From assembly GCF_013122565.1 (NCBI RefSeq), contig NZ_CP053258.1: a stretch of 64,000 nt of DNA, one strand, 5' to 3'. This document shows, one piece after another, positions 1 through 49,849 of this stretch. The notes below the pieces were generated by a model that saw only the letters and a program-made list of their open reading frames with translations, did no database searches and was not told where the DNA came from. Source of the stretch: Escherichia coli. GTDB lineage: Bacteria > Pseudomonadota > Gammaproteobacteria > Enterobacterales > Enterobacteriaceae. The position numbers were made by a program, and so were the translations under genes. Each line of letters begins with the position of its first letter. Position 1 is the first letter of the stretch.

Positions 1-1
1 T

Positions 2-1054: not shown

Positions 1055-1623
1055 GATTCTTTTTACGGTTAATCCTGTTACTGACGACGCTGCTCAATGC
1101 CTCGTGGGCGTTGGCCGTCAATATTTCGGTTAACTTTACCGCGACGATCAAAGAGACCACCTGCGCCATGACGGTGAGCGCACTCAATGGCGCGAATCTT
1201 AGCGGTGACTCGGCATCAGAGAACTACTTTCTGGATTTACCCACAATGGGGGTTTCCGATATCACCAATAAAACGTCCAAAACCGAAGCCAGCTTTAAGC
1301 TATTACCGATTAACTGTAATAACTACATCTCCAGCATGTCGATGACCATTGGCGGTAAACACAGCGGTTATACCGACACGTTGCTGGTGAATGATTCCTC
1401 GGTTACAGGAGGAGCCAGTTACATTGGCGTGGGCTTTAAACGGCTTAATGACGATGACAGCCTGCGGTTTAAGGTGGATGGAACGACGTCAATTAACTGG
1501 ACACGCAATGACATTGCCAATGGATTTGATATTACTGGAATAGTTCGCCGGACAACGAGTTCTTACAACATGATACCCGGTCTGGTTCAGACAAAAGCGA
1601 TATTCGTTTTTACTTATAACTAA
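1051..1623 (+). CDS. yadM: Fimbrial subunit-like protein
   Basis: ATG at 1051 overlaps htrE stop (ATGA), preceded by GGAGAGGAA SD; signal peptide MRFFLRLILLLTTLLNASWA; ORF-track start 952 judged over-extended. Confidence 0.8.
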   Translation: MRFFLRLILLLTTLLNASWALAVNISVNFTATIKETTCAMTVSALNGANLSGDSASENYFLDLPTMGVSDITNKTSKTEASFKLLPINCNNYISSMSMTIGGKHSGYTDTLLVNDSSVTGGASYIGVGFKRLNDDDSLRFKVDGTTSINWTRNDIANGFDITGIVRRTTSSYNMIPGLVQTKAIFVFTYN

Positions 1624-1635
1624 CAGGGATGGTGT

Positions 1636-2232
1636 ATGAATTATCAACGCATAATTGTAGCGCTATTGTTAATCATCGGAATAAATACGCAATGCCTGGC
1701 TGGCTCCAGTTCGTTGAACGTGACGGTGAGGACAACCGTTACCGCCAGTACCTGCACAGCAGAGCTTCACAATGCGCAGGACCTGCAAGCGACAACAATT
1801 GATATTGGTGATGTCTATCTGAACGAACTTGCAAATAAGACTAAATATCAGAATTTCAGCCTGGTGTTTTCAAATTGTGAAGGCTTAGCCAAAGATCAGG
1901 CGACCGTCACACTTTCTCCGCAAACAGGCTGCGATGGTGCATCCAGTACGGGTGGCGGATTTCGCAACGCACTGGCCTCCAGCGACAATGATGCGGCAAC
2001 CGGCGTATCGATTGAAGTATGGACGACCAATCAGCCGGAAGGTCAGGGAAGTGTGCAGCTAAACTGCAAGACAAAACCGACCAGTATTGTCGATCTGACG
2101 GGCGCGTCAGGTGCGAACGTTGTCCACTGGTGGTTAAGCTCCAGAATTGTCGTCGCCGCGGATAACACTATCGCCGATGTACGTGCAGGGCAGTTCTCCA
2201 CCAACGCTGTCTTTTCAGTAACCTATGAGTAA
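1636..2232 (+). CDS. yadL: Fimbrial subunit-like protein
   Basis: 198-aa ORF with signal peptide, fimbrial-subunit-like C-terminus (VFSVTYE), operon context. Confidence 0.8.
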   Translation: MNYQRIIVALLLIIGINTQCLAGSSSLNVTVRTTVTASTCTAELHNAQDLQATTIDIGDVYLNELANKTKYQNFSLVFSNCEGLAKDQATVTLSPQTGCDGASSTGGGFRNALASSDNDAATGVSIEVWTTNQPEGQGSVQLNCKTKPTSIVDLTGASGANVVHWWLSSRIVVAADNTIADVRAGQFSTNAVFSVTYE

Positions 2233-2238
2233 ACGACG

Positions 2239-2811
2239 ATGAAATCACGTTTTCGACTGTTCGTTTCCGGCTTATGGTTTATTACAGCGGCCTGTATTGC
2301 CAACACCAATATTAATATGACCGCCAACGTTGTCAGCACCAGTTGCAAAGTCACCCTCGACAATAGCGGCAGCATTGATTTAGGCACGGTTAATTACGAC
2401 TATCTGAACACGAATACTGCCGTGGATCGCGTTTATACCGGTGGTCAGGCGTTCTACATCACCGTCAGTGACTGCGCGCAGATGGCGGGTAAAAATCCTT
2501 CCCGTCTTACGGTGAGTTTTACGCCCGTCGGGGGTACCCTCGGCGCAACTAATCAACAGGTTTTTGCCAATCAGGCAGCCGATGGCGCTAAAAACGTCGG
2601 CATCGTAATTTTATCCACCCAGGATGCGCAAAGTATTTTCAATGTGCTGGATACCCACGGCCAATCGCAAAGTATTTACCCCGTGAGCGCGGATCAGCTA
2701 GCCAATGCCACCTACCATTTTTATGCACGGATGCAGAAGATCGACCTGGCGCAAGCCGCCACCAGCGGTGTAGTGCGGGCCAGTGTGTTTGTCGGTGTTT
2801 ATTATGAATAA
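2239..2811 (+). CDS. yadK: Fimbrial subunit-like protein
   Basis: 190-aa ORF with signal peptide and C-terminal VFVGVYYE strand typical of chaperone-usher pilins. Confidence 0.8.
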   Translation: MKSRFRLFVSGLWFITAACIANTNINMTANVVSTSCKVTLDNSGSIDLGTVNYDYLNTNTAVDRVYTGGQAFYITVSDCAQMAGKNPSRLTVSFTPVGGTLGATNQQVFANQAADGAKNVGIVILSTQDAQSIFNVLDTHGQSQSIYPVSADQLANATYHFYARMQKIDLAQAATSGVVRASVFVGVYYE

Positions 2812-2837
2812 CGTTTTACGTTCTCAAGGATGATGAA

Positions 2838-4058
2838 ATGAACCGTTTCCGATTACTAAAATGGGTCAAAACTCTGCTGATTTTGCTGCCCATATATTCA
2901 GGCTATCTCCAGGCTGCAAATACACTGGTTGTCGGCAGTAAAGCTACCGCTGACGGTAATGGTAGTAATAAAAACAAAGGTCCCGCTGGTGATGGTTATT
3001 CCACAACCACTTTTACCACTGGCAACAGTCAGATAGTGATCGGGCGGGCTACAACTCTTCAATACAGTAATATTAAGCTACAGTTGCAAGCCGATACCGC
3101 AGGGAATGGCAATACCGGCGCGATTTACTGCGCACCGGGCGGCATGGGGGGGCCTATTACCCTGGAGAGTCATTTCCTTAAAGCACCCTACGTTTTTGAT
3201 AACCACCAGCTCTTTAAAACCAACATACAAGGGCTGTATTTCACCATGCGCATGTATAATCTCTGGTCATACGCCACCTCTTCACCGGATGACTTTTATG
3301 TCGGGGATGCCGAGCAACAGACGCTTAACTTACACTCAACGAGCTGTCCAGGCGATCTTGGCTGGTATCAACAGCTTGGCGGTCTGGTCTCTAATATTGA
3401 TATCGACTTTTATAACGACGCTACCTTTGACCCCAGCGCCAGCGGCAGTATTGCCCTGCTGAGTGATACCACCTATCACTACTCACTGAAAAACCTGTCC
3501 CCCGGGGGAAATCTCAATACCCATACTATTTTCCAAACCTTCAATATGGGGAATGTCACATTAACCTCTCCAACCTGTTCGTCGGCGATACTCTCCGGCA
3601 ACAGCGTCAGTAAAGGCGATACGGTAGGACTGGGCGAATACAGCTCGAAAGAGGTTATCGACGGCCTGAGCGGCGTGCCTTTTTCAATTGTGCTGAAAGG
3701 GTGTTATCGGGTAACAAATATTGATGTCAAACTGACCACGGGAGCCCCTGCGGTATCAACGTCACTATTGGGCAACTCGCTGACAACCGATGCCGCCAGC
3801 GGTGTCGGCGTAGAAATTAAAGGCGAGGCCAACTCGCATTATCCTGAAGTGGTGCTCAAGCCAAACGACGCCTCCTCAATCTATAAAGCGTATGGCGATA
3901 ACCCGGAAACCTCTAACGGTATTATTGGTAACAATGCTTCGGGTTCGCCTGCTGACCAGACGCTGAATTTTACCGCGACGCTCAAGCAGGATGGTAATCA
4001 GCAAATCCGGGGAGGAGAGTTCAAAGCAACGGGCGTCTTCTCCATCACTTACCCCTGA
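2838..4058 (+). CDS. yadC: Fimbrial tip adhesin-like protein
   Basis: 406-aa ORF, signal peptide, two-domain size typical of tip adhesins, pilin-like C-terminus (VFSITYP). Confidence 0.8.
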   Translation: MNRFRLLKWVKTLLILLPIYSGYLQAANTLVVGSKATADGNGSNKNKGPAGDGYSTTTFTTGNSQIVIGRATTLQYSNIKLQLQADTAGNGNTGAIYCAPGGMGGPITLESHFLKAPYVFDNHQLFKTNIQGLYFTMRMYNLWSYATSSPDDFYVGDAEQQTLNLHSTSCPGDLGWYQQLGGLVSNIDIDFYNDATFDPSASGSIALLSDTTYHYSLKNLSPGGNLNTHTIFQTFNMGNVTLTSPTCSSAILSGNSVSKGDTVGLGEYSSKEVIDGLSGVPFSIVLKGCYRVTNIDVKLTTGAPAVSTSLLGNSLTTDAASGVGVEIKGEANSHYPEVVLKPNDASSIYKAYGDNPETSNGIIGNNASGSPADQTLNFTATLKQDGNQQIRGGEFKATGVFSITYP

Positions 4059-4175
4059 GTAAAATACCGGCAGCTAACCCTGCCGGTTTTGACCACAAAG
4101 GGCTAACACTCATCACCCACATCCCCTACAATGCCCTCATACTATTGATGATATTTATGGCTAACAGGGGTTATG

Positions 4176-4970
4176 ATGAAACCGACCACCATCTCCTTAT
4201 TGAACAAATACAAACAAGAAAAAAAACGCTTCGCCACCATCACAGCCTACGACTACAGCTTCGCCAAACTGTTTGCCGATGAAGGGCTGAACGTGATGCT
4301 GGTAGGTGACTCACTGGGCATGACGGTTCAGGGCCACAACTCCACCCTTCCCGTTACCGTCGAAGATATCGCCTATCATACCGCTGCCGTACGTCGCGGT
4401 GCGCCAAACTGCCTGCTGCTGGCTGATCTGCCGTTTATGGCGTATGCCACGCCGGAACAAGCCTTTGAAAACGCCGCAACGGTTATGCGTGCCGGTGCCA
4501 ACATGGTCAAAATTGAAGGCGGTGAGTGGCTGGTAGAAACCGTACAAATGCTGACCGAACGTGCCGTTCCTGTATGTGGTCACTTAGGTTTAACCCCACA
4601 GTCAGTGAATATTTTCGGTGGCTACAAAGTTCAGGGGCGCGGCGATGAAGCGGGCGATCAACTGCTTAGCGATGCATTAGCCTTAGAAGCCGCGGGGGCA
4701 CAGCTGCTGGTGCTGGAATGCGTACCGGTTGAACTGGCAAAACGTATTACCGAAGCACTGGCGATCCCGGTTATTGGTATTGGCGCAGGCAACGTCACTG
4801 ACGGGCAGATCCTCGTGATGCACGACGCCTTTGGTATTACCGGCGGCCACATTCCTAAATTCGCTAAAAATTTCCTCGCCGAAACGGGCGACATCCGCGC
4901 GGCTGTGCGGCAGTATATGGCTGAAGTGGAGTCCGGCGTTTATCCGGGCGAAGAACACAGTTTCCATTAA
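4176..4970 (+). CDS. panB: 3-methyl-2-oxobutanoate hydroxymethyltransferase (ketopantoate hydroxymethyltransferase)
   Basis: Recognised PanB sequence (MKPTTISLL...EEHSFH); start taken at second Met, alternative ATG at 4173. Confidence 0.95.
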
Positions 4971-4981
4971 GGAGTCACGTT

Positions 4982-5833
4982 GTGTTAATTATCGAAACCC
5001 TGCCGCTGCTGCGTCAGCAAATTCGCCGCCTGCGTATGGAAGGCAAGCGCGTGGCGCTGGTGCCTACCATGGGTAACCTGCACGATGGCCATATGAAGCT
5101 AGTCGACGAAGCCAAAGCCCGCGCCGATGTGGTCGTCGTCAGTATTTTCGTTAACCCGATGCAGTTCGACCGCCCGGAAGATCTGGCTCGTTATCCACGG
5201 ACCTTGCAGGAGGACTGCGAGAAGCTAAACAAACGTAAAGTAGATTTAGTTTTCGCCCCTTCGGTAAAAGAGATCTACCCGAACGGTACAGAAACCCACA
5301 CCTATGTTGATGTTCCTGGTCTTTCCACCATGCTGGAAGGTGCCAGCCGTCCGGGACATTTTCGCGGCGTTTCGACTATTGTCAGCAAGCTGTTCAACCT
5401 GGTCCAGCCGGACATCGCCTGCTTCGGTGAAAAAGATTTTCAGCAACTGGCGCTGATCCGCAAAATGGTTGCTGATATGGGCTTTGATATTGAGATTGTC
5501 GGTGTGCCAATTATGCGCGCCAAAGACGGTCTGGCGCTGAGTTCCCGTAACGGTTATCTGACGGCGGAACAACGTAAAATTGCGCCCGGTCTGTACAAAG
5601 TTTTAAGTTCGATTGCCGACAAATTGCAGGCTGGCGAACGGGATCTCGATGAAATTATTGCTATTGCCGGGCAAGAACTGAATGAAAAAGGCTTCCGCGC
5701 CGATGATATTCAGATTCGCGATGCCGACACGTTGCTGGAAGTCTCTGAAACCAGCAAACGGGCAGTGATTCTGGTAGCCGCCTGGCTTGGCGATGCCCGC
5801 CTGATCGACAACAAAATAGTCGAACTGGCGTAA
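4982..5833 (+). CDS. panC: Pantothenate synthetase
   Basis: Recognised PanC ([18 protein letters not shown]...); GTG start 11 bp after panB. Confidence 0.95.
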
Positions 5834-5839
5834 TACTTA

Positions 5840-5875
5840 ACTGGCGCTACGGCTGATGGCGCCAGTTATTAATTT
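5840..5875 (+). terminator. Candidate intrinsic terminator after panC
   Basis: Inverted repeat ctggcgc...gcgccag (5841-5847 / 5859-5865) followed by T-rich tract, immediately after panC stop. Confidence 0.5.
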
Positions 5876-5928
5876 GCCCTACGTCATGGCGATGACGTCT
5901 GTAAGTGATTATTCATATCGCTGGCAAT

Positions 5929-6110
5929 TTAGTTAGAGTTAATTAGCTTATCAATCTCTGTAAGAGGTAAAGTTGTCACCTCTGCAACGTCTTCCCGAGA
6001 CATCCCTTTACTTAGAAAACGCTGGGCGAATTCCTGTCTTACCTTCTGGAGTTCCTCTTGATATCCCTTCTGAAATCCCTTCTCTTCAAACCACTGCGCC
6101 AACGTCTGCC
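5929..6110. repeat. Copy 1 of tandemly duplicated rpnC 3'-end (tail-encoding) segment
   Basis: About 85% nucleotide identity to 6207..6360 by eye, with 6-bp and 24-bp indels. Confidence 0.7.
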
Positions 6111-31886: not shown

Positions 31887-32290
31887 TCATGTCTGTGACG
31901 CTAAAGTAACAAAGTATTCACCTTATGTCCATACAGGTTTTGATTGAAATCATGAAACTGTGCACATTTTAACAACTTGACATATATAACGTTTCAAAGT
32001 TGTAACTATGCACAAATGTAGACTTTACGTAGGAAAGGGATTTTTTAACGATTATTAAACTATAAAAATCCGAATTGAACCGATTCACTTACCAATTTTG
32101 TGATTTTTAATTCAGTTAAAACGAATTTAAATTCATTCTGCATATTGAGAGGGGTTGAGGCTGAGATTTACAAACGGTTTCTTTTTAAGCAACTCATCTT
32201 CAACCATGCATAAAGCGGGTGCATTCGCTGCCGCATACCATTATTCTTGATCTGACGGAAGTCTTTTTGTAACAATTCAAACTTCTTTGA

Positions 32291-32308
32291 TGTAAACAAA
32301 TTAATACA
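32291..32308 (+). promoter_or_regulatory. Candidate TyrR box in the aroP promoter region
   Basis: tgtaaacaaattaataca resembles TGTAAA-N6-TTTACA (left half exact, right half 4 of 6) about 70 bp upstream of aroP start. Confidence 0.35.
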
Positions 32309-32378
32309 ACAAACGGAATTGCAAACTTACACACGCATCACTGCGTAGATCAAAAAAACAATCACCGCACGAGGTTTC

Positions 32379-33752
32379 ATGATGGAAGGTCAACAGCACG
32401 GCGAGCAGCTAAAGCGCGGCCTTAAAAACCGCCATATTCAGCTTATCGCGCTGGGTGGCGCGATAGGGACAGGACTATTCCTGGGTAGCGCCTCCGTAAT
32501 ACAGTCCGCAGGGCCAGGAATTATCCTGGGTTACGCCATTGCTGGTTTTATCGCCTTTCTGATCATGCGTCAGCTGGGTGAAATGGTGGTCGAAGAACCT
32601 GTCGCAGGCTCCTTTAGCCACTTTGCTTATAAATACTGGGGCAGCTTTGCTGGCTTCGCTTCTGGCTGGAACTACTGGGTACTGTACGTTTTAGTTGCCA
32701 TGGCAGAGCTGACTGCTGTGGGTAAATACATTCAGTTCTGGTATCCGGAAATCCCAACTTGGGTTTCTGCCGCCGTGTTCTTTGTGGTGATTAACGCCAT
32801 CAACCTGACCAACGTAAAAGTGTTTGGTGAGATGGAGTTCTGGTTTGCCATTATCAAAGTTATTGCGGTAGTAGCGATGATCATCTTCGGCGGCTGGCTG
32901 CTGTTCAGTGGTAACGGCGGTCCGCAGGCAAGCGTTAGCAACCTGTGGGATCAGGGCGGTTTCCTGCCGCACGGCTTCACCGGGCTGGTGATGATGATGG
33001 CGATTATCATGTTCTCGTTCGGTGGTCTGGAACTGGTGGGGATCACCGCAGCAGAAGCTGATAACCCGGAGCAAAGTATCCCGAAAGCAACTAACCAGGT
33101 TATCTACCGCATCCTGATTTTCTATATTGGTTCGTTAGCCGTTCTGCTCTCACTGATGCCGTGGACCCGCGTTACCGCCGATACCAGTCCGTTTGTGCTG
33201 ATCTTCCACGAGTTAGGCGATACCTTTGTGGCGAATGCGCTGAACATCGTGGTACTGACTGCGGCGCTCTCCGTGTACAACAGCTGCGTATATTGCAACA
33301 GCCGTATGCTGTTTGGTCTGGCACAACAGGGTAACGCGCCAAAAGCGCTGGCGTCTGTCGATAAACGCGGCGTACCGGTTAACACCATTCTGGTGTCTGC
33401 GCTGGTTACAGCATTGTGCGTATTGATTAACTATCTTGCTCCGGAATCCGCATTTGGCCTGTTAATGGCACTGGTGGTATCCGCACTGGTGATCAACTGG
33501 GCGATGATCAGTCTGGCGCATATGAAGTTCCGTCGCGCCAAGCAGGAACAAGGCGTGGTAACTCGCTTCCCTGCTCTGCTTTATCCGCTGGGTAACTGGA
33601 TCTGCCTGCTGTTTATGGCGGCGGTACTGGTGATTATGCTGATGACCCCAGGAATGGCGATTTCGGTATACCTGATCCCGGTATGGCTGATCGTGTTAGG
33701 TATCGGCTATCTGTTTAAAGAGAAAACCGCCAAAGCCGTAAAAGCGCATTAA
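32379..33752 (+). CDS. aroP: Aromatic amino acid:proton symporter (APC family)
   Basis: Recognised AroP 457 aa (MMEGQQHGEQLKRGLKNRHIQLIALGGAIGTGLF…). Confidence 0.95.
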   Translation: MMEGQQHGEQLKRGLKNRHIQLIALGGAIGTGLFLGSASVIQSAGPGIILGYAIAGFIAFLIMRQLGEMVVEEPVAGSFSHFAYKYWGSFAGFASGWNYWVLYVLVAMAELTAVGKYIQFWYPEIPTWVSAAVFFVVINAINLTNVKVFGEMEFWFAIIKVIAVVAMIIFGGWLLFSGNGGPQASVSNLWDQGGFLPHGFTGLVMMMAIIMFSFGGLELVGITAAEADNPEQSIPKATNQVIYRILIFYIGSLAVLLSLMPWTRVTADTSPFVLIFHELGDTFVANALNIVVLTAALSVYNSCVYCNSRMLFGLAQQGNAPKALASVDKRGVPVNTILVSALVTALCVLINYLAPESAFGLLMALVVSALVINWAMISLAHMKFRRAKQEQGVVTRFPALLYPLGNWICLLFMAAVLVIMLMTPGMAISVYLIPVWLIVLGIGYLFKEKTAKAVKAH

Positions 33753-33761
33753 TCTCTCTAC

Positions 33762-33795
33762 GCCCTCACCCGTACAGGGTGAGGGCAATAATATT
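33762..33795. terminator. Bidirectional terminator between convergent aroP and ampE
   Basis: 10-bp stem gccctcaccc-gtaca-gggtgagggc followed by aataatattt. Confidence 0.7.
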
Positions 33796-34649
33796 TACAC
33801 CAACGCCCCGTAAATCGTCAGTAGCGCAATCACCACCACGACCACGAACGAGGTTTTCTTCGCCATTGAAACCGCTGCCTTCGGCGTCTCCACCTTATCG
33901 ACATGCGGTTCACGCGCCAGAGAGAACTGCGCCAGACGCGTTAATACCTGATATTGCGAAGTACGGAAATCACCCAGCGAAGCAAACCAGGCCGGTAACG
34001 CTTTCTCACCATGACCGATCAAGGCATATACCACACCTGCAAGACGAACCGGCACCCAATCCAGTACATGAAGCACTGCATCAATGCCGGACTGTAAACG
34101 ATGATGCGGCGTCTGGTATCGCGCCAGCCAGTATTGCCATGCACGCAAGAACGCATACCCCATCAGCGTAACGGGTCCCCAGGTTCCCCCCACAATCAGC
34201 CAGAACAGCGGTGCAAGATAAAAACGAAAGTTAATCCACAGCAATGCATTTTGCAGCTCACGCAAATACTCACGTTCGTCGCAGCCTGCCGGGACGCCGT
34301 GAATCATGGTGAGTTCGCCAGCCATCGTGGCACGGGCATGGCTATCATTACGTGAAGCAGCTGTCAGATAAGCATGATAATGAAGACGAACTTTACCTGC
34401 GCCAATACACAGCAAACCAATCAGCAGCCACACCAGCAGCGTGGGAACGTTGAACAATACTCCCTGCAATGCGCGTAACAGTAAAAAAGTCACGCCCATC
34501 GCAATAATGGTCATGCCTAACGTGCGCCCGAGAGAAAAATGTTTCACCCGCCGAAAGAACGCTTCAAGACGATGATCAAGCTGCCAGTGCTCGCCCAACT
34601 TAAACAGGCGCTCGAAAATTAACACCAGTAAGGTTGTAAATAGCGTCAT
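33795..34649 (-). CDS. ampE: Inner-membrane protein AmpE
   Basis: Recognised AmpE 284 aa ([23 protein letters not shown]…); start overlaps ampD stop (ATGA). Confidence 0.9.
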
Positions 34650-35197
34650 GTTGTCTCCTTGCTGACCAGCGCACGAAACCGTGCCCAATCAAATGCAGGA
34701 CCGGGATCGGTTTTCCGATCCGGCGCAATATCACAATGGCCCGTCATGTTTTTAGCGATATCCGGATAGCAATCAATCAGTGCCCGCGTAACCGCCGCAA
34801 GCTGTTGATACTGCGCATCGGTATACGCCAGCGTATCGGTGCCTTCAAGCTCAATCCCAATAGAAAAATCATTGCAGCGTTCGCGCCCCTGATACTGAGA
34901 GACTCCCGCATGCCAGGCACGTTTATCGAAAGGAACATACTGGACTATTTCACCATCACGGCGAATCAAACAGTGAGCGGAGACGCGCAAATGGGCGATC
35001 TCAGCAAAGAAAGGATGTACCTGCGGATCAATAGTTCCAGTGAATAATGCGTCGATCCACGGACCGCCAAACTCGCCTGGCGGCAGGCTAATATTGTGCA
35101 CCACCAGCAGGGTGGGTGTTTCGTCATCCGGGCGGCAATCGTAATGTGGTGAGGGAACGCGGCGCGCGCCAACCAGCCACCCCTGTTCTAACAACAT
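34646..35197 (-). CDS. ampD: 1,6-anhydro-N-acetylmuramyl-L-alanine amidase
   Basis: Recognised AmpD 183 aa ([26 protein letters not shown]…). Confidence 0.95.
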
Positions 35198-35224
35198 GCA
35201 GGATCTCCTTATATGTGGTGCTAA

Positions 35225-36178
<954 letters not shown>

Positions 36179-36380
36179 TTGCTGACAGATTTATCCGCTC
36201 CATCGCGGGCGGATAATCTCCCCTTCCCCAACTTTCTTCGTAACGCCTCGCAAATTTCTTGTCTTTCGCTGCAACGAAATAAAAAACCTCGGAAGCTGCT
36301 TTCCCGTTTCGTTTTTTGCCCCTCGCTTGTGCTGATGGCGTTTGCCAAAGTAGCGCCAACCAAATCAAGGAGCGAAACAG

Positions 36381-36821
36381 ATGGACAAGCAACGCGGTTT
36401 TACACTTATCGAACTGATGGTGGTTATTGGCATCATTGCCATTTTAAGCGCCATTGGTATTCCCGCTTATCAAAACTACCTGCGCAAAGCCGCACTCACC
36501 GACATGCTACAAACCTTTGTGCCTTACCGTACCGCCGTAGAGTTGTGCGCGCTGGAACATGGTGGATTAGATACCTGCGACGGTGGCAGCAATGGCATTC
36601 CCTCGCCTACCACCACCCGCTATGTTTCAGCCATGAGTGTGGCAAAAGGCGTGGTGTCGCTGACCGGGCAAGAAAGTCTCAATGGGCTAAGCGTCGTCAT
36701 GACGCCGGGTTGGGATAACGCAAACGGCGTCACCGGCTGGACGCGCAACTGCAATATTCAAAGTGACAGCGCATTGCAGCAAGCCTGCGAAGATGTCTTC
36801 CGCTTTGATGACGCCAACTAA
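36381..36821 (+). CDS. ppdD: Type IV prepilin (prepilin peptidase-dependent pilin)
   Basis: Class III signal / N-methylation motif MDKQRGFTLIELMVVIGIIAILSAIGIPAYQNY; 146 aa. Confidence 0.9.
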   Translation: MDKQRGFTLIELMVVIGIIAILSAIGIPAYQNYLRKAALTDMLQTFVPYRTAVELCALEHGGLDTCDGGSNGIPSPTTTRYVSAMSVAKGVVSLTGQESLNGLSVVMTPGWDNANGVTGWTRNCNIQSDSALQQACEDVFRFDDAN

Positions 36822-36830
36822 GGAGCGGCA

Positions 36831-38216
36831 ATGAATATTCCACAGCTCACGGCCCTGTGTCTGCGTTATCAGGGAGTCTTGCTGGATGCCAGCGAAGAAG
36901 TGGTTCATGTTGCGGTGGTCGATGCCCCCTCACATGAGTTGCTGGACGCATTGCATTTCGCTACCACCAAACGTATTGAGATCACCTGCTGGACGCGCCA
37001 ACAAATGGAAGGTCACGCCAGTCGCACACAACAGACATTGCCCGTAGCTGTTCAGGAGAAGCATCAGCCCAAAGCAGAGTTGCTGACTCGAACGTTACAA
37101 TCTGCGCTGGCACAACGCGCGTCTGATATTCATATCGAACCAGCGGACAATGCCTACCGCATCCGCTTGCGTATCGACGGCGTATTGCATCCTTTACCGG
37201 ATGTTTCACCGGATGCCGGAGTCGCATTAACCGCCAGATTAAAAGTGCTGGGAAACCTGGATATTGCGGAACATCGCCTGCCGCAGGACGGGCAATTCAC
37301 TGTCGAACTGGCAGGAAACGCCGTCTCATTTCGTATTGCGACCTTACCATGTCGGGGTGGTGAAAAGGTGGTATTAAGGTTGTTACAGCAGGTGAGCCAG
37401 GCACTGGATGTTAACACGCTGGGAATGCAGCCGTTACAACTGGCGGACTTTGCTCATGCCTTGCAACAACCACAGGGACTGGTGCTGGTAACTGGCCCTA
37501 CCGGCAGCGGCAAAACGGTCACGCTTTATAGTGCCCTGCAAACGCTGAATACCGCTGACATTAATATTTGTAGCGTCGAAGATCCGGTTGAGATCCCCAT
37601 AGCCGGACTAAACCAGACGCAAATTCATCCGCGTGCCGGACTCACCTTTCAGGGCGTTTTGCGTGCGTTATTGCGCCAGGATCCTGACGTCATCATGATC
37701 GGAGAGATCCGCGATGGCGAAACGGCAGAAATTGCCATTAAAGCCGCGCAAACCGGTCACCTGGTGTTGTCTACCCTACACACTAATTCCACCTGCGAAA
37801 CGCTGGTACGTTTACAGCAAATGGGAGTCGCCCGCTGGATGCTCTCATCAGCGCTTACGCTGGTAATAGCCCAGCGTCTGGTACGTAAACTTTGCCCACA
37901 TTGTCGCCGCCAGCAAGGGGAGCCCATCCATATTCCAGACAATGTATGGCCGTCGCCGCTGCCCCATTGGCAGGCACCCGGTTGTGTACATTGCTACCAC
38001 GGTTTTTATGGTCGCACTGCCTTATTTGAAGTTCTGCCCATAACACCGGTCATACGTCAGCTTATTTCCGCTAATACCGACGTTGAATCGCTGGAAACGC
38101 ACGCCCGACAGGCGGGTATGCGAACGCTTTTTGAAAACGGCTGCCTGGCCGTGGAGCAAGGTTTAACCACCTTTGAAGAGTTAATCCGCGTACTGGGGAT
38201 GCCGCATGGCGAGTAA
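36831..38216 (+). CDS. hofB: Type IV pilus assembly ATPase (PilB/GspE family)
   Basis: Walker A GPTGSGKT, Asp and His boxes, C-terminal tetra-Cys motif (CPHC…CVHC). Confidence 0.9.
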
Positions 38217-39408
38217 GCAACTCTGGCGCTGGCATGGCATAACCGGCGACGGCAATGCGCAAGATGGGATGCGATGGGCAGAGAGCCGTGCTTTGCTGCT
38301 CATGGCACTACAGCAACAGATGGTTACTCCACTAAGCCTGAAGCGAATTGCTATCAATTCTGCGCAGTGGCGAGGAGATAAAAGCGCGGAAGTCATTCAT
38401 CAACTGGCGACGCTACTTAAAGCCGGGTTAACGCTTTCTGAAGGGCTGGCTCTGCTGGCGGAACAGCATCCCAGTAAGCAATGGCAAGCGTTGCTGCAAT
38501 CGCTGGCGCACGATCTCGAACAGGGCATTGCTTTTTCCAATGCCTTATTACCCTGGTCAGAGGTATTTCCGCCGCTCTATCAGGCGATGATCCGCACGGG
38601 TGAACTGACCGGTAAGCTTGATGAATGCTGCTTTGAACTGGCGCGTCAGCAAAAAGCCCAGCGTCAGTTGACCGACAAAGTGAAATCAGCGTTGCGTTAT
38701 CCCATCATCATTTTAGCGATGGCAATCATGGTGGTTGTGGCAATGCTGCATTTTGTTCTGCCGGAGTTTGCCGCTATATATAAGACCTTCAACACCCCAC
38801 TACCGGCACTAACGCAGGGGATCATGACGCTGGCAGACTTTAGTGGCGAATGGAGCTGGCTGCTGGTGTTGTTCGGCTTTCTGCTGGCGATAGCCAATAA
38901 GTTGCTGATGCGCCGCCCGACCTGGCTTATCGCGCGGCAGAAATTGCTGTTACGCATCCCGATTATGGGTTCACTGATGCGGGGACAAAAACTCACGCAG
39001 ATCTTTACGATTCTGGCGCTGACTCAAAGTGCAGGCATTACTTTTTTACAGGGCGTAGAGAGCGTCAGAGAAACAATGCGCTGCCCGTACTGGATGCAAC
39101 TTCTGACACAAATCCAGCACGATATCAGTAACGGTCATCCCATCTGGCTGGCGTTAAAAAATGCCGGTGAGTTTAGCCCGCTCTGTTTGCAATTAGTGAG
39201 AACGGGAGAGGCCTCCGGCTCGCTGGATCTCATGTTAGACAACCTCGCCCATCATCATCGGGATAACACAATGGCGCTGGCGGATAACCTAGCAGCCTTA
39301 CTGGAACCGGCGTTGCTGATCATAACGGGAGGAATTATCGGTACGCTGGTGGTGGCGATGTATCTGCCAATTTTCCATTTAGGCGATGCGATGAGTGGGA
39401 TGGGATAA
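38206..39408 (+). CDS. hofC: Type IV pilus inner-membrane platform protein (PilC/GspF family)
   Basis: 400-aa polytopic protein with duplicated GspF domain; start overlaps hofB stop. Confidence 0.9.
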   Translation: MASKQLWRWHGITGDGNAQDGMRWAESRALLLMALQQQMVTPLSLKRIAINSAQWRGDKSAEVIHQLATLLKAGLTLSEGLALLAEQHPSKQWQALLQSLAHDLEQGIAFSNALLPWSEVFPPLYQAMIRTGELTGKLDECCFELARQQKAQRQLTDKVKSALRYPIIILAMAIMVVVAMLHFVLPEFAAIYKTFNTPLPALTQGIMTLADFSGEWSWLLVLFGFLLAIANKLLMRRPTWLIARQKLLLRIPIMGSLMRGQKLTQIFTILALTQSAGITFLQGVESVRETMRCPYWMQLLTQIQHDISNGHPIWLALKNAGEFSPLCLQLVRTGEASGSLDLMLDNLAHHHRDNTMALADNLAALLEPALLIITGGIIGTLVVAMYLPIFHLGDAMSGMG

Positions 39409-39434
39409 CGCTGGCGTGTTGCTCCACACCAGCG
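39409..39434. terminator. Hairpin between convergent hofC and guaC
   Basis: cgctggcgtg-ttgctc-cacaccagcg, 10-bp stem with one mismatch. Confidence 0.45.
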
Positions 39435-39442
39435 TTGGAAGA

Positions 39443-40486
39443 TTACAGGTTGTTGAAGATGCGGTTTTCTTGTTCCTGCACACGGATAAATGTGGTGCGC
39501 TTGGTCAGTTCTTTCAGGCGTGAAGCCCCAACGTATGTACAAGCTGAACGCAGGCCGCCCAAAATATCACGCGCGGTATTTTCAACCGGGCCTCGCAGCG
39601 GCAGCTTAACGGTTTTACCTTCTGCTGCGCGATATTCCGCAACGCCGCCAACGTGACGTTTCATCGCAGACTCGGAGCTCATGCCGTAGAACAGCATAAA
39701 TTTCTCGCCGTTCTCCTCAACGATGCGACCGCCGCTCTCTTCGTGGCCCGCCAGCATGCCGCCAAGCATGACGAAATCGGCACCGCCGCCAAAAGCTTTC
39801 GCGACATCGCCCGGCGTGGTGCAGCCACCATCGCTGACGATCATTCCGCCCAGACCGTGCGCAGCATCGGCACATTCGATTACCGCAGAAAGTTGCGGAT
39901 AACCGACGCCTGTTTTGACACGAGTTGTACAAACAGAACCTGGGCCAATGCCAACTTTAACGATATCGGCACCGGAGAGGATAAGCTCCTCACACATTTC
40001 ACCAGTCACTACGTTGCCAGCACAAATGGTTTTGGTCGGCCACGCTTCACGCGCTTTCGCAACGAACTGCACGAAGTGTTCGGAATAACCATTCGCCACA
40101 TCAATACAAACGAAGTTTAATGCCGGGTTCAGGTCGAGAATCTGTTTAGTTTTTTCGAAATCCGCATTTGACGTACCGGTAGAAACCATCACATGTTTCA
40201 GCACATCAGCGGAAGAATTGTTGATAAACGCTTGCCACTCTTCGACAGAATAGTGTTTATGCACAGCAGTCAAAATATCAAAAGAAGCCAGCGCAGAGGC
40301 CATAGAAAATGTGCCTACGGTGTCCATATTTGCGGCGATAATCGGCACGCCGGACCAGCTCTGACCTGAATGTTTGAAGGTGAATTGACGTTCCAGTTCA
40401 ACATCGGAACGGCTTTTAAGAGTGGAGCGTTTAGGGCGGATGAGAACGTCTTTAAAACCTAACTTCAGATCTTCTTCAATACGCAT
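39443..40486 (-). CDS. guaC: GMP reductase
   Basis: Recognised GuaC 347 aa ([29 protein letters not shown]…). Confidence 0.95.
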
Positions 40487-40710
40487 GTGCGGATTCCTGG
40501 GGTTAATGGCTATAAGGGTAAGAGCGCAACTCCAGTGACGCTATCATACGCACTAATCAATGCGGCGCAAGACTGCGAAATTGTCTTTTTTTACGCTACA
40601 ATCCCATAAATTTACCTGGTAAATAGTGAGCGAACGTTTCATCAATTTCGCTTTCGTGCGCTCATTTTTAACGTTTTGATAATCATGATGAATTCCCGGG
40701 AATATAAATT

Positions 40711-42074
<1,364 letters not shown>

Positions 42075-42083
42075 GGAGTAAAA

Positions 42084-42281
42084 ATGTCAGAAACTATTAC
42101 GGTGAATTGCCCAACCTGCGGGAAAACGGTGGTGTGGGGTGAAATTAGCCCGTTTCGGCCATTTTGCTCCAAACGTTGTCAGTTGATCGACCTCGGAGAA
42201 TGGGCTGCTGAAGAAAAACGAATCCCCAGCAGTGGCGATCTTTCCGAAAGCGATGACTGGAGCGAAGAACCAAAGCAGTGA
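42084..42281 (+). CDS. yacG: DNA gyrase inhibitor YacG (zinc-finger protein)
   Basis: 65-aa protein with CPTC…C..C zinc ribbon ([40 protein letters not shown]). Confidence 0.9.
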
Positions 42282-42290
42282 CATTTGTCT

Positions 42291-42384
<94 letters not shown>

Positions 42385-42397
42385 AGACTTATCTGAC

Positions 42398-42801: not shown

Positions 42802-42830
42802 AAAAAAGGCGCAGAATCCTGCGCCTTTTA
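42802..42830 (-). terminator. Intrinsic terminator downstream of secA
   Basis: Minus-strand aaaaggcgcag-gatt-ctgcgcc followed by tttttt, between secA stop and mutT start. Confidence 0.7.
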
Positions 42831-42846
42831 CTTCAACTGTTAGCTT

Positions 42847-45552
42847 TTATTGCAGGCGACCATGGCACTGCTTGTATTTTTTACCAGAACCGCACGGGCA
42901 AGGATCGTTACGTCCTACTTTGCGTTCACCGGTTTGCGCCGCCAGTGCAGCTGCGGCTGCAGAGTCGTCATCCTGATGGCTAAGCTGCTGCATTTGCGCT
43001 AAACGCTCGGCTTCCATACGACGCTGTTGTTCCAGCTCCTCAACCTCTTCAGGCATACGTACCTGAACTTTGCTCAGCGTACTGATAACTTCATATTTCA
43101 ACGACTCCAGCATCGCTGCAAACATGGAGAACGATTCACGTTTGTATTCCTGCTTCGGATCTTTCTGTGCATAGCCACGCAGGTGGATACCCTGACGCAG
43201 ATAGTCCATCGCTGCCAGGTGCTCTTTCCACAGGGAGTCAAGCGTTTGCAGCATGACGCCTTTCTCGAAGTGACGCATCATCTCAGCACCAACCACTTCT
43301 TCTTTACGCTGATACACTTCGATGGACTGCGCCAGAATGCGCTCACGCAGCGTCTCTTCATGCAGTTCGGGTTCTTTATCCAGCCACTCAGCAATTGGTA
43401 AATCGAGGTCGAAATCGTTCTTCAGACGTTCCTGCAGCCCCGGAATATCCCACATTTCTTCCAGCGACTGTGGCGGAATGTAGGCATCAATGGTGGCTTT
43501 GAACACATCTTCACGAATGCTGTTGATGGTTTCGCTCACATCGCTGACATCCAGCAGTTCGTTACGCTGGGAGTAAATGGCGCGACGCTGATCGTTAGCC
43601 ACGTCATCATATTCCAGCAGTTGCTTACGAATGTCGAAGTTACGGCTTTCAACTTTACGCTGGGCGTTGGCAATCGCTTTGGTCACCCACGGGTGTTCAA
43701 TGGCTTCGCCTGGCTTCATACCCAGTTTACGCATCATGCCGGATACTCGGTCGGAAGCAAAAATACGCATCAGCGCATCTTCCATCGACAGGTAGAAACG
43801 GGAAGAACCAGCATCCCCCTGACGACCAGAACGACCGCGCAACTGGTTATCGATACGACGGGATTCGTGACGCTCGGTACCGATGATATGCAGGCCACCT
43901 GCTGCCAGTACCGCATCGTGACGTACCTGCCAGTCGGCTTTAATTTTTTCAATTTGCTCTGCGGTCGGATTTTCCAGCGCGGCAACTTCTGCCTGCCAGC
44001 TACCACCGAGCACAATATCTGTACCACGACCCGCCATGTTGGTCGCGATAGTCACCGCAGCCGGATAACCTGCCTGAGCAACAATCGCCGCTTCGTTGGC
44101 GTGGAATTTGGCGTTCAGGACATTGTGCTTAATACCGGCTTTGGTCAGTTCGTTTGACACCAGCTCCGATTTTTCGATGGAGATAGTACCCACCAGCACC
44201 GGCTGGCCTTTCGCAGTACGTTCTTTGATATCTTCAATGATCGCCTGAATTTTTTCCGCTTCAGTCATGTAGACCAGGTCCGGCAAATCTTTACGAATCA
44301 TTGGACGGTTGGTCGGAACAACGACGGTATCCAGTTTGTAGATGGAGCTAAATTCGAAAGCTTCGGTATCAGCAGTACCGGTCATCCCCGCCAGTTTTTC
44401 ATACAGACGGAAGTAGTTCTGGAAGGTGATCGAAGCCAGCGTTTGGTTTTCGTTCTGGATCTGCACACCTTCTTTCGCTTCCACAGCCTGGTGCAGACCA
44501 TCGGACCAGCGACGGCCCTGCATGGTACGACCGGTGTGTTCGTCAACGATGATAACTTCACCATCTTTAACGATGTAGTCGACGTCACGGGTAAACAGCG
44601 CATGAGCGCGCAGCGCCGCCGTTACGTGGTGCATCAGCATGATGTTGGCCGGAGAGTACAGAGACTCCCCTTCATCCATGATGCCCTCTTTCACCAGCAG
44701 TTCTTCAATCAGCACCAGACCACGTTCGGTCAGGTTCACCTGGCGAGATTTTTCGTCCACCGAGAAGTGGCCTTCGCCCTGGAAGGTTTCGGAGTCTTCT
44801 TTTTCCTGACGGATCAGGTGCGGAATAATTTTATTCACGCGTTTATACATTTCCGAGCTGTCTTCTGCCGGGCCAGAAATGATCAGCGGTGTACGCGCTT
44901 CATCGATCAGGATGGAGTCCACTTCGTCCACCAGCGCATAGTGCAGTTTACGCTGTACACGTTCTTCAGGACTGAACGCCATGTTGTCGCGCAGGTAGTC
45001 AAAGCCGTATTCGTTGTTCGTACCGTAAGTGATGTCAGCTGCGTAGGCTTCACGCTTTGCCGGTGCTGGCATGCCCGGCAGGTTGATACCGACAGTCAGG
45101 CCAAGGAATTCAAACAGTGGACGGTTGTTTTCGGCGTCACGTTGCGCCAGGTAGTCGTTGACGGTAACTACATGCACACCTTTACCGGTTAGTGCGTTCA
45201 GGTAAGCAGGCAGCGTTGCGGTCAGGGTTTTACCTTCACCGGTACGCATTTCGGCGATGCAGCGTTCGTTAAGAACCATACCGCCGAGTAACTGAACGTC
45301 GAAGTGACGCATACCAAAGACGCGCTTACTTGCCTCACGTACCACGGCGAAAGCTTCCGGGATCAGATTTTCCAGCACTTCGCCTTTTTCCAGACGCGCA
45401 CGAAACTCTGCGGTTTTCCCTTTCAGTTCTTCGTCGGAGAGTTTTTCCATCTCCGGTTCCATGGCATTGATGATGTTGACCACTTTGCGCATCCGGCGCA
45501 GGGTGCGATCGTTACGACTACCGAAAACTTTAGTTAATAATTTGATTAGCAT
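42847..45552 (-). CDS. secA: Preprotein translocase ATPase SecA
   Basis: Recognised SecA 901 aa ([26 protein letters not shown]…) with C-terminal zinc motif [14 protein letters not shown]. Confidence 0.97.
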
Positions 45553-47374: not shown

Positions 47375-48526
47375 TTAATCAGCTTGCTTACGCAGGAATG
47401 CTGGGATATCCAGATAATCCGGCTCTTTCGCAGTTTGCGGCGCATTGTCATTCACGACTTTAGCAACCGGCTTCTGCTCCTGGGTCAGCGGAGCCATCCC
47501 GTGCTGCTGGTAGCGATCCATCACTGGCTGCTGAACCTGCTTATTGGTCACCAGAGTGATTTCAGGACGTTTGTCCATGCCGATACCTGTCGCAACAACA
47601 GTTACGCGCAGCTCGTCATTCATATCCGGGTCAAGAGAAGTACCGATAACCACGGTCGCGTTGTCGGAAGCAAATGCACGGATGGTGTTACCTACCGTTT
47701 CGAACTCATCCAGACGCAGGTCGAAGCCCGCCGTGATGTTAACCAGCACGCCGCGCGCGCCAGACAGGTCGATATCTTCCAGCAGCGGAGAAGAGATAGC
47801 CATTTCAGCAGCTTCTTCCGCACGGTCTTCACCGCTCGCCACGCCAGAACCCATCATTGCGTAGCCCATTTCAGACATTACGGTGCGTACGTCTGCGAAG
47901 TCCACGTTCATCAAACCCGGACGAGTAATCAGTTCAGCGATACCTTGCACAGCGCCTTTCAGTACATCGTTCGCTGCGCCAAACGCATCCAGCAGGGAGA
48001 TACCGCGGCCCAGAACTTTCAGCAGTTTGTCGTTCGGGATAGTGATCAGAGAGTCCACATGCTTGGACAGTTCAGTGATCCCCTGCTCCGCGAATGCCAT
48101 ACGCTTCTTGCCTTCAAAGTTGAAAGGCTTAGTGACGACAGCAACGGTCAGGATACCCAAATCTTTTGCCACTTCAGCGACGACTGGTGCTGCCCCTGTA
48201 CCGGTACCACCACCCATACCCGCAGCAATAAAGACCATGTCTGCACCTTCCAGCGCCGCACGCAATGCATCGCGATCCTCATCAGCCGCATTGCGGCCAA
48301 CTTCTGGATTAGCGCCAGCGCCCAGTCCTTTGGTGATACCGCTACCGATTTGAATCGTCTGTCCAACCGCTGTTTTACGCAGCGCTTGTGCATCGGTATT
48401 TACCGCGAAGAATTCAACACCTTCAATGCGCTCGCGCACCATGTGTTCAACAGCATTACCGCCGCCGCCGCCGACGCCGATGACTTTAATCACCGCGTCA
48501 TTGGTAAGTTCCATTGGTTCAAACAT
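47375..48526 (-). CDS. ftsZ: Cell division GTPase FtsZ
   Basis: Recognised FtsZ 383 aa; tubulin signature GGGTGTG. Confidence 0.97.
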
Positions 48527-48586
48527 AGTTTCTCTCCGATTTGTGCCTGTCGCCTGAGGCCGTAATCATCGTCGGCCTCATAAAAA

Positions 48587-49849
48587 TTAAAACTCTTTTC
48601 GCAGCCAACTATTGAGTCGCTTGATCCACGAGCCAACTGATGCTGTAACACGTTTTTCTACTTCAGCTTCACCGTTAAGATGTGACTCTTTCCCATAGTG
48701 AAGCAATCCCACCGCCGTCGAATAATACGGCTCCTGAGCATAATCCGTTAAACCGGTAATGTTCAGCGGCGCGCCGATACGCACTTGCGTATGAAACACG
48801 CGCTGAGCACAGGCTGCAAGACCTTCGATCTGCGCTGCGCCACCGGTTAATACAATGCCTGCCGCCAGGTGATGTTTAACCCCTTGTTGGCGAAGCTTTT
48901 CCTGCAACTGCAATATCTCTTCGTTGACCAGGTTGAGCAGCTCGGTATAGCGCGGCTCGATCACCTCTGCCAGGGTCTGACGTTGCAGACTCCGCGGCGG
49001 ACGACCGCCTACGCTCGGCACTTCCACGCTCTCATCTTTTCCAACGATGGAACCCAGCGCACAACCGTGGCGAACTTTAATCGCTTCGGCGTCGCTTGGC
49101 GGCGTGCCAAAGGCGTAAGCGATATCACTGGTCACGACATTGCCAGCATAAGGAATTACCTTAGTGTGGCGCAATGCCCCACCGGTATAAACGGCGATAT
49201 CCATTGTACCACCACCGATATCGACGACGCAGACACCCAGTTCACGTTCATCTTCCGTCAATACCGAATAACTTGATGCCAGTCCGGCAAATATCAGTTG
49301 GTCAACTTTCAGCCCACAACGTTCAACCGCTTTGACGATGTTTTTCGCCATATCGTTGTGACATGTGATCAGGTGCACTTTTGCCTGCATCCGCACGCCC
49401 GAAAGTCCTACCGGATTCTTGATCCCTTCCTGATAGTCAATCGCATACTCTTGCGGGATCACATGCAGCACACGATGCTCATCGCGCACACGCACCGATT
49501 TCGCGGTATGGACGACGTTTTCCACATCTTCTTGCGTCACTTCTTCTTCAGAAATAGGCACCATACCAATTTCATTCTGGCAGCTGATGTGCTTACCAGA
49601 AAGCGCCAGATATACCGAAGAGATCTGACAATCTGCCATCAATTCTGCCTGGTCAATGGCACGTTGTACGCACTTGACCACGGATTCGAGGTCGTTCACC
49701 CCGCCTTTATCCATACCACGCGACGGGCAGCTGCCCACGCCAATGATATTGACCATACCGTCGGGCAGAACTTCCCCTACTAAAGCGGCAACCTTCGCGG
49801 TACCAATCTCCAGTCCTACTACCAGTTTTCTGTCCGTCGCCTTGATCAT
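48587..49849 (-). CDS. ftsA: Cell division protein FtsA (actin-like ATPase)
   Basis: Recognised FtsA 420 aa ([27 protein letters not shown]…). Confidence 0.97.

Follow-up and report, generated by a model that had tools for sequence, protein, structure and literature searches.

The locus examined here raises the question of whether a short run of genes in Escherichia coli, normally silent in the laboratory, encodes a working part of a type IV pilus, and what such a pilus would do for the cell. We analysed the interval 36381-39408 of a 64-kb stretch of E. coli DNA (64,000 nt, hereafter the window). We conclude, with a probability of roughly 90%, that the interval holds ppdD-hofB-hofC of E. coli (hcpABC in EHEC), an operon for the pilin subunit and the inner-membrane motor of a chromosomal type IVa pilus. 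The locus is already known as a named, annotated and structurally characterised core-genome operon of E. coli.

Operon layout and genomic context

The ORF list contains only three plus-strand ORFs in the interval, all of which start with ATG:

36381..36821, plus strand: ppdD (hcpA), type IVa major prepilin of 146 aa (ORF, Pfam, NCBIfam, PDB 6GV9)
36831..38216, plus strand: hofB (hcpB; PGAP name gspE), PilB-like hexameric assembly ATPase of 461 aa (PRK10436, T2SSE, motifs)
38206..39408, plus strand: hofC (hcpC), PilC/GspF-type polytopic inner-membrane platform of 400 aa (PRK10573, T2SSF, PilC 3JC8)

A gap of 9 nt separates ppdD from hofB, and hofB and hofC share 11 nt (38206-38216; junction ...GGGGAtgccgcATGgcgagTAA), an overlap that suggests translational coupling. 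Shine-Dalgarno-like sequences lie 5' of each start, namely AGGAG at 36368-36372 for ppdD, AAGGAG at 36820-36825 for hofB and GGGGA at 38194-38198 for hofC. In matching E. coli genomes, RefSeq places ppdD, gspE (= hofB) and hofC between nadC and guaC. Antisense ORFs of 81-99 aa inside hofB and hofC were set aside as unsupported. Internal direct and inverted repeats were short and chance-like, an Rfam scan gave no match within the interval, and the PADLOC defence models gave no meaningful match.

Positions 4176-64000 of the window are colinear with K-12 at ~90-150 kb, with the gene order nadC, ppdD hofB hofC, guaC. At positions 1-4175 lie fimbrial genes of the chaperone-usher class (yad-type), a system distinct from this pilus. 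Genes for a secretin, a prepilin peptidase, minor pilins or PilMNOP were not found in the 64-kb window, and the K-12 annotation of the colinear ~90-150 kb stretch likewise contains neither a secretin nor a peptidase. In K-12 and EHEC, the partners hofMNOPQ, gspO/pppA and ppdAB-ygdB-ppdC are located at distant loci, and 12 accessory assembly genes have been listed (10.1101/856302). An earlier interpretation made from the letters of the window (the sequence-only reading) had described a compact operon with overlapping hofB and hofC, lacking a secretin and peptidase in the window and relying on distant loci. The ORF coordinates bear out this layout to the base, the K-12 annotation and the separate fimbrial system at 1-4175 agree with the missing partners, and hofMNOPQ, ppdAB-ygdB-ppdC and gspO are the distant loci concerned (10.1101/856302).

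Description of the gene products

PpdD. The class III signal peptide MDKQRG/FTLIELMVVIG consists of a 6-aa leader (nt 36381-36398) followed by a hydrophobic N-terminal helix. Cleavage is placed after Gly6 because the mature chain in PDB 6GV9 starts at F7; the mature protein has Phe1 and Glu5. The match to the NCBIfam equivalog PRK10574 / NF007862 spans aa 1-145 and scores 269.3 bits against a cut-off of 138. Pfam N_methyl (39.9 bits) and TIGR02532 (35.9 bits) are both over their cut-offs; the Pfam Pilin match is marginal (21.6 bits, cut-off 22). Cysteines at precursor positions 56, 66, 124 and 136 form the pairs C56-C66 and C124-C136 of the D-region, which correspond to the mature disulfides C50-C60 and C118-C130 described previously (10.1101/2021.04.14.439816). 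Mature PpdD is identical to chain A of the EHEC pilus subunit 6GV9 at 139/140 residues.

HofB. The protein scores 823.8 bits against the NCBIfam equivalog PRK10436 (cut-off 617) and 490 bits (4.6e-147) against Pfam T2SSE, with MshEN at aa 8-69. It has the motifs of a PilB/GspE-type T2SSE ATPase. GPTGSGKT (aa 222-229, nt 37494-37517) is the Walker A motif, EDPVE (aa 250) the Asp box and VIMIGEIRD (aa 287) Walker B; the His box follows at aa 308, and CPHC (aa 355) and CVHC (aa 385) are the cysteine motifs. Among PDB entries, PilB structures (5ZFR/5TSG, 1e-104) match best. Against the canonical PilB equivalog TIGR02538, HofB reaches 486.8 bits, under the cut-off of 675.65, and covers only 167-561 of the profile. 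It falls under the canonical PilB and GspE equivalog cut-offs because ~100-165 N-terminal residues are absent. HofB is thus PilB-like in function and is placed in its own enterobacterial equivalog, PRK10436.

HofC. The protein scores 661 bits against the NCBIfam equivalog PRK10573 (cut-off 401), contains two Pfam T2SSF stretches (190.9 bits) and matches Myxococcus xanthus PilC 3JC8 at 6e-44. Its three hydrophobic segments (aa 167-185, 217-235 and 369-387) are those of a T2SSF platform.

The assignments to a major prepilin, a PilB-type assembly ATPase and a PilC-type platform, as the sequence-only reading had proposed, are corroborated by the signal peptide and 6GV9 identity of PpdD, by the intact Walker A, Asp box, Walker B, His box and two CxxC motifs of HofB with PilB as its best PDB match, and by the two T2SSF domains, hydrophobic segments and PilC match of HofC.

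Spacers and regulation

Three elements of the spacers flanking the operon were considered:

36187..36219, plus strand: stem-loop just 3' of the nadC stop (36176-36178), -16 kcal/mol, z = -2.48 against shuffles
36234..36255, plus strand: candidate CRP-S site, TTCTTCGTAACGCCTCGCAAAT, with the hallmark C6 and G17
39406..39437, unstranded: GC-rich inverted repeat in the 34-nt spacer of the convergent hofC and guaC, -19.8 kcal/mol, z = -1.9

The stem-loop, which has no clear U-run, is probably a terminator or insulator of nadC. It bounds the ppdD regulatory region on the 5' side. The stem of the hofC-guaC inverted repeat is retained in 8/8 strains, with one stem position polymorphic for A/G (G-U or G-C pair), and this repeat probably serves as a shared transcription stop for the two genes. 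Between the CRP-S site and ppdD, a terminator-like hairpin with a T-run (36290-36320) was considered as a leader attenuator and rejected, its fold being no better than shuffles (-9.5 kcal/mol, z = -0.45).

The candidate CRP-S site lies 126-147 nt 5' of ppdD, its centre ~136 nt from the ATG. The right half-site matches perfectly and the left one at 3/5 positions, and no other sequence in the nadC-ppdD spacer comes within two mismatches of TGCGA-N6-TCGCA, which alone is not significant (~0.14 chance matches are expected in the 202-nt spacer). Genome-wide, the pattern gave 32 matches against 43 expected, so the motif by itself is no evidence. We accept the site because of its position, its invariance and published binding data. 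It is the same as in K-12 and invariant in 8/8 E. coli sequences, and the published CRP band-shift fragment, located through its primers, maps to window positions 36168-36298 and contains it (PMC1635313); the assignment to exactly 36234-36255 is one that we infer. In K-12, CRP binds the ppdD upstream fragment in vitro, and Sxy raises the transcript ~90-fold, though not in crp or cyaA backgrounds (PMC1635313). Co-transcription of ppdD and hofB is implied, because the qPCR primers of that study lie in hofB (PMC1635313). A scan of 35900-39700 found no sigma-70 promoter, as expected for an activator-dependent promoter. Sxy/CRP control has been shown in K-12, whose site is identical, and by analogy would also operate in this strain. 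The description of the module as silent in laboratory E. coli yet inducible by Sxy with cAMP-CRP agrees with published work (PMC1635313, PMC3330819).

Comparison with known systems

In K-12 (b0108-b0106) the genes come in the same order, with the same lengths (441, 1386 and 1203 nt), spacing (9-nt gap, 11-nt overlap) and neighbours (nadC, guaC), and the differences amount to allelic variation only: 2, 40 and 27 nucleotides in ppdD, hofB and hofC, respectively. PpdD is identical, HofB differs at 4 aa (H14Q, E94A, G189S, K238T) and HofC at 7 aa. The spacer has 4 substitutions in 202 nt, none of them in the CRP-S site, and is almost identical from the CRP-S-like site to the Shine-Dalgarno sequence. 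The EHEC O157:H7 operon hcpABC (PDB 6GV9, 6GMS) is orthologous, with the same two disulfides and the same E53/H54 calcium-site residues; the pilin is one residue apart from 6GV9 (T121 here, Ala there). Minca-type expression is known for the EHEC hemorrhagic coli pilus, whereas the operon here is known from sequence.

The pilABCD operon of Haemophilus influenzae has the same order of pilin, ATPase and platform, the same CRP-S/Sxy logic and a role in a DNA-uptake regulon (PMC1635313), but has the prepilin peptidase gene pilD as a fourth gene, whereas here the operon stops at hofC, with guaC convergent 34 nt further on. PilA-PilB-PilC of Pseudomonas aeruginosa and M. xanthus share the ATPase fold and motifs and the platform architecture. 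Unlike these, the E. coli operon has neither an adjacent pilD nor pilT/pilU, its pilin has an extra enterobacterial disulfide, and its control, as known from K-12, is by Sxy/CRP-S. HofB is also shorter than PilB, by ~100-125 aa. The canonical type IVa pilus is regulated by PilR/PilS, unlike ppdD-hofB-hofC.

Conservation and alternative explanations

Of 5,426 complete E. coli genomes, 5,424 contain the region. In a sample of 40 evenly spaced genomes, 39 have hofB at its whole length of 1386 nt in a single piece without gaps, and the remaining one, H99, has a partial hofB deletion. The eight operons sampled are all intact, none being interrupted by a frameshift or a stop codon, and dN/dS is 0.16, 0.08 and 0.12 for the three genes. 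The HofB motifs are unchanged in these 8 strains except for V386I at an x position of CxxC; inactivation of the hofB Walker motifs across strains, which the sequence-only reading had named as evidence against itself, was not seen in the samples examined. The operon is near-universally conserved and under purifying selection. Cross-genus footprinting has already been published.

This conservation bears directly on the view that the module is a decaying, non-functional 'cryptic' relic of an ancestral competence system, kept by chance. Its silence in standard culture would fit such decay, as would the lack of a recognisable sigma-70 promoter and the hofB deletion in H99. PpdD was made in culture by 0/72 ECOR strains, and natural transformation has never been observed; standard natural-transformation assays of Sxy-induced cells yielded no transformants, some being obtained only with lambda Red recombinase (PMC3330819). 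We nevertheless consider a relic very unlikely, given the dN/dS of 0.08-0.16 over eight diverse sequences, the invariant catalytic motifs and the near-constant length and presence of hofB. Moreover, the genes function once expressed, as seen from processed pilin and hofQ-dependent uptake (PMC3330819), from reconstitution plasmids (10.1101/856302) and from the solved structure 6GV9. Even less credible is the proposal that HofB and HofC are parts of a type II secretion system with PpdD as a pseudopilin, so that proteins would be secreted instead of a pilus being built. PGAP does call hofB 'type II secretion system protein GspE', there are secondary matches to GspE, GspF and GspG models and to Vibrio GspE/EpsE structures (~1e-100), and GspG/GspE/GspF belong to the same type IV filament superfamily, with Pfam N_methyl, T2SSE and T2SSF in common. 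All three proteins, however, score under the type II secretion equivalog cut-offs (GspE 456.5 < 630.25, GspF 260.6 < 424, GspG 29.1 < 88.85). No gspC, D or H-M genes lie nearby, and the published partners hofMNOPQ are PilMNOPQ-like (10.1101/856302). PpdD has a pilin-type, disulfide-bonded C-terminal region and forms a true pilus (6GV9).

A different view accepts the pilus and takes adhesion and virulence to be its main purpose (the 'hemorrhagic coli pilus'), with the operon retained for host or surface colonisation. HcpA pili of EHEC EDL933 in Minca medium are reported to act in adherence, invasion, the formation of biofilms, twitching motility and the induction of cytokines (PMC2920817), and the pilin of the window is all but identical to that subunit. 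Against this, the operon is conserved in essentially all E. coli, commensal and laboratory strains included, which is unlike a pathotype-specific virulence factor, and it belongs to the Sxy/CRP-S competence regulon (PMC1635313); workers on UPEC detected no type IV pilus expression under various growth conditions (PMC2649431). A mainly adhesive purpose is therefore possible but unlikely. Adhesion and DNA uptake are not mutually exclusive roles.

Proposed assembly and biological role

For the ppdD-hofB-hofC operon as a type IVa pilus module, we propose the following course of events. A weak, activator-dependent promoter in the nadC-ppdD spacer would transcribe the operon, firing only when cAMP-CRP and Sxy/TfoX act on the CRP-S site at ~36234-36255. 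The PpdD prepilin would then enter the inner membrane, where GspO/PppA, encoded elsewhere, would cleave it after Gly6 and methylate Phe1. The identity of the acting prepilin peptidase is taken from the literature. From PilB/PilC homology and published reconstitution, HofB would be expected to dock on the HofC platform and to drive the extraction of pilins from the membrane into a growing helical filament. Primed by the minor pilins PpdA, PpdB, YgdB and PpdC, this filament would cross the HofMNOP alignment complex and the HofQ secretin; the genes for all of these partners are at distant loci. Expression, processing and piliation in this strain may be expected by extrapolation from K-12 and EHEC.

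Physiologically, the pilus most likely serves to take up DNA, within the Sxy competence regulon and/or with DNA as a nutrient, and in some pathotypes it would serve adhesion as well. Sxy yields processed PpdD and hofQ-dependent DNA uptake in E. coli (PMC3330819), EHEC HCP pili consist of HcpA, which is PpdD (PMC2920817), and EHEC ppdD-hofBC expressed in K-12 brings PpdD to the surface (PMC2649431). The earlier statement that homologues mediate DNA uptake or adhesion elsewhere is supported and can be extended, as assembly, adhesion by EHEC 'HCP' (PMC2920817) and Sxy-induced uptake (PMC3330819) have all been reported in E. coli itself. A regular natural role of the operon that is yet to be pinned down, for instance uptake of DNA or transformation set off by Sxy in the gut or in the environment, is possible but unlikely, and the window offers no pointer to a natural role beyond those already debated in the literature. 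If there is such a role, the short N-terminus of HofB could reflect motor control that differs from that of canonical PilB.

As a discovery, the finding is of small importance; what is gained is confirmation that the sequence-only reading had named the operon correctly from raw sequence. The allele is intact, so this strain can in principle build a PpdD pilus, provided that its distant partner loci are intact as well.

Operon structure and protein families

The ppdD-hofB-hofC operon comprises three consecutive same-strand genes, whose coordinates in the ORF list agree exactly with those of the sequence-only reading. Together with the neighbouring genes, the layout is as follows:

Upstream of and ending at 36178, + strand, nadC
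36381-36821, + strand, ppdD, 146 aa
36831-38216, + strand, hofB, 461 aa
38206-39408, + strand, hofC, 400 aa
39443-39445, - strand, stop codon of guaC, the downstream neighbour, 34 nt past hofC

The earlier description of a compact operon with overlapping hofB and hofC is borne out by the 9-nt gap between ppdD and hofB and the 11-nt hofB/hofC overlap (junction …GGGGAtgccgcATGgcgagTAA). A Shine-Dalgarno-like purine run lies 5' of all three starts, and a GC-rich inverted repeat occupies the hofC-guaC spacer. Since the GC content of the region (0.50-0.56) equals that of its surroundings, nothing points to a foreign island.

From profile searches, the equivalog-level assignments of the three products are unambiguous: PpdD to PRK10574 'prepilin peptidase-dependent pilin' (269 bits, cut-off 138), HofB to PRK10436 (HofB, NCBI name 'GspE'; 824 bits, cut-off 617) and HofC to PRK10573 'HofC' (661 bits, cut-off 401). 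In Pfam, PpdD shows N_methyl and a marginal Pilin match. Mature PpdD (F7-N146) is identical at 139 of 140 residues to chain A of PDB 6GV9, the type 4 pilus of enterohaemorrhagic E. coli (EHEC), which together with the PRK10574 score upholds its identification as a major prepilin. Because 6GV9 chain A begins at F7, peptidase cleavage is placed after Gly6. The four cysteines of PpdD match the described disulfides C50-C60 and C118-C130, and PpdD also has the ALEH loop, to which a part in calcium binding has been ascribed.

HofB retains all catalytic and structural motifs, namely Walker A (GPTGSGKT), the Asp box (EDPVE), Walker B, the His box and a zinc module of two CxxC motifs, and carries a T2SSE domain with an MshEN-like N-domain in front. 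Its closest solved structures are PilB ATPases (~1e-104), followed by GspE/EpsE. The name 'PilB-type' ATPase is thus functionally correct, although HofB scores below the equivalog cut-offs of both PilB (486.8 against 675.65) and GspE (TIGR02533; 456.5 against 630.25), and at 461 aa, compared with 566-588 in solved PilB proteins, has an N-terminus shorter by about 100-125 aa. In every genome inspected, PGAP/RefSeq names 36831-38216 'gspE, type II secretion system protein GspE'; this label is a naming artefact and an annotation pitfall and does not argue for type II secretion. HofC carries three segments of strong hydrophobicity, as do PilC/GspF proteins; its equivalog score, its two T2SSF repeats and its best solved relative, Myxococcus xanthus PilC, agree with the platform role proposed for it.

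Upstream region

The nadC-ppdD spacer is 202 nt long and contains the following elements:

36187-36219, hairpin at the start of the spacer, right after the nadC stop (-16 kcal/mol, z = -2.5; no clear U-run)
36234-36255, candidate CRP-S site in its 22-bp form, TTCTTCGTAACGCCTCGCAAAT, with the diagnostic C6 and G17

The hairpin probably terminates nadC transcription; strain TR01 has substitutions inside it, CCATAGTGGG in place of CCATCGCGGG. A hairpin and T-run at 36290-36320 were dismissed, the fold being no better than that of shuffled sequences. A promoter scan of the region found no sigma-70 consensus promoter, which is consistent with an activator-dependent promoter. At 36237-36252 lies the sole match in the spacer (at most two mismatches) to the CRP-S core TGCGA-N6-TCGCA, a match that by itself is statistically not significant. 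The candidate site is the same as in K-12, does not vary among eight strains, and falls within the published ppdDF/ppdDR primer fragment, for which E. coli CRP gives a weak shift (PMC1635313). In K-12, induction by Sxy was about 90-fold and absolutely dependent on CRP and cAMP (PMC1635313). The 'ppdD' qPCR primers of that study are hofB primers (PMC1635313), and the induction measured with them implies co-transcription of hofB with ppdD.

Conservation and selection

Megablast against 5,426 complete E. coli genomes recovers the 3.4-kb region in 5,424 of them, with identities of 95-99.3%, and all matching genomes are annotated with the gene order nadC, ppdD, gspE, hofC, guaC. The best identity among complete genomes is 99.3% for the operon region and 99.6% for the dcw cluster; the strain of the window is therefore absent from this set, yet it is plainly E. 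coli. Positions 4176-64000 are colinear, in reverse orientation, with about 90-150 kb of K-12 MG1655, where the counterparts are b0108 (ppdD), b0107 (hofB) and b0106 (hofC). The two differences between ppdD and its K-12 counterpart (2/441) are synonymous and leave the protein unchanged; hofB differs from K-12 at 40 of 1386 nt and four residues, and HofC at seven residues.

When the window was compared with K-12 and six further E. coli loci spanning the identity range, all eight operons were intact and identical in length, with mean dN/dS of 0.16 (ppdD), 0.08 (hofB) and 0.12 (hofC); only one substitution among them fell in a motif, the conservative change V386I in an x residue of CxxC. A hofB-only search of 40 evenly spaced genomes returned a single ungapped 1386-nt match in 39. 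The reading of the operon as a decaying relic is unlikely, and the inactivation of hofB motifs across strains that the sequence-only reading had named as evidence against itself was not seen in these sets, the motifs being kept in 8/8 operons and the gene full-length in 39/40 genomes.

The weakest of the 40 matches (NZ_CP159686.1, 3519686-3520833) has hofB split into two pieces that together span only 84% of the gene and bear the generic annotation 'ATPase, T2SS/T4P/T4SS family'; this is a rare natural deletion allele.

Other features of the window

Divergence from K-12 is mosaic across 31930-42385: ampE-ampD-nadC-ppdD (34330-36729) differs by 0.3-1%, hofB-hofC by 2-3.7% and aroP by 3-4%. It resembles the patchwork that recombination ordinarily leaves, here with a breakpoint close to the junction of ppdD and hofB. 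Positions 1-6106 (yad-type chaperone-usher genes and panB/panC) are unusually divergent, with a best identity of 92.7% among the 5,426 genomes and at least 80% query coverage in only eight; panBC is 93.7% identical to K-12, positions 1-4175 gave no megablast match to K-12, and the remainder of the window shows 98-99.6% identity. The segment could have been recombined in from a divergent Escherichia lineage. The aceF-lpd intergenic region (26164-26195) spans about 31 nt here against about 148 nt in K-12, measured as the gap between blast blocks, probably because a REP-type element is present in one and missing in the other. Rfam gathering-level matches all lie outside ppdD-hofB-hofC, with none inside it:

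30916-31029, + strand, tp2, upstream of pdhR
42304-42381, - strand, naRNA4, REP-derived, in the yacG-mutT spacer
42802-42871, - strand, STnc40, at the 5' end of the secA ORF (42847-45552, - strand) and just upstream
48518-48607, - strand, PssrA-like match at the ftsA/ftsZ junction

Functional context

None of the distant partner genes of pilus assembly (hofMNOPQ, ppdAB-ygdB-ppdC, gspO/pppA) lies within the 64-kb window, so that the module is, as proposed, incomplete here, lacking secretin and peptidase; the only other fimbrial genes are of the chaperone-usher (yad) type, at 1-4175. Any functional role of the PpdD pilus in this strain would follow by analogy from literature on K-12 and EHEC. 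In cells induced with Sxy, PpdD is processed and DNA is taken up in a hofQ-dependent manner, but transformants required a supply of lambda Red recombinase; among 72 ECOR strains, not one produced PpdD in culture (PMC3330819). On Minca medium, EHEC produces PpdD/HcpA pili, to which adhesion and related phenotypes have been attributed (PMC2920817). Expression of EHEC ppdD-hofBC in K-12 placed pilin on the surface, and uropathogenic E. coli (UPEC) had no detectable pili (PMC2649431).

The observation of the sequence-only reading is confirmed and its interpretation supported. The locus is the same operon as in K-12 and EHEC, with allelic differences only. In its working it resembles the canonical PilA-PilB-PilC core and the Haemophilus influenzae pilABCD competence operon, except that no peptidase gene is adjacent. 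In this E. coli, ppdD-hofB-hofC is an ordinary and already known feature.
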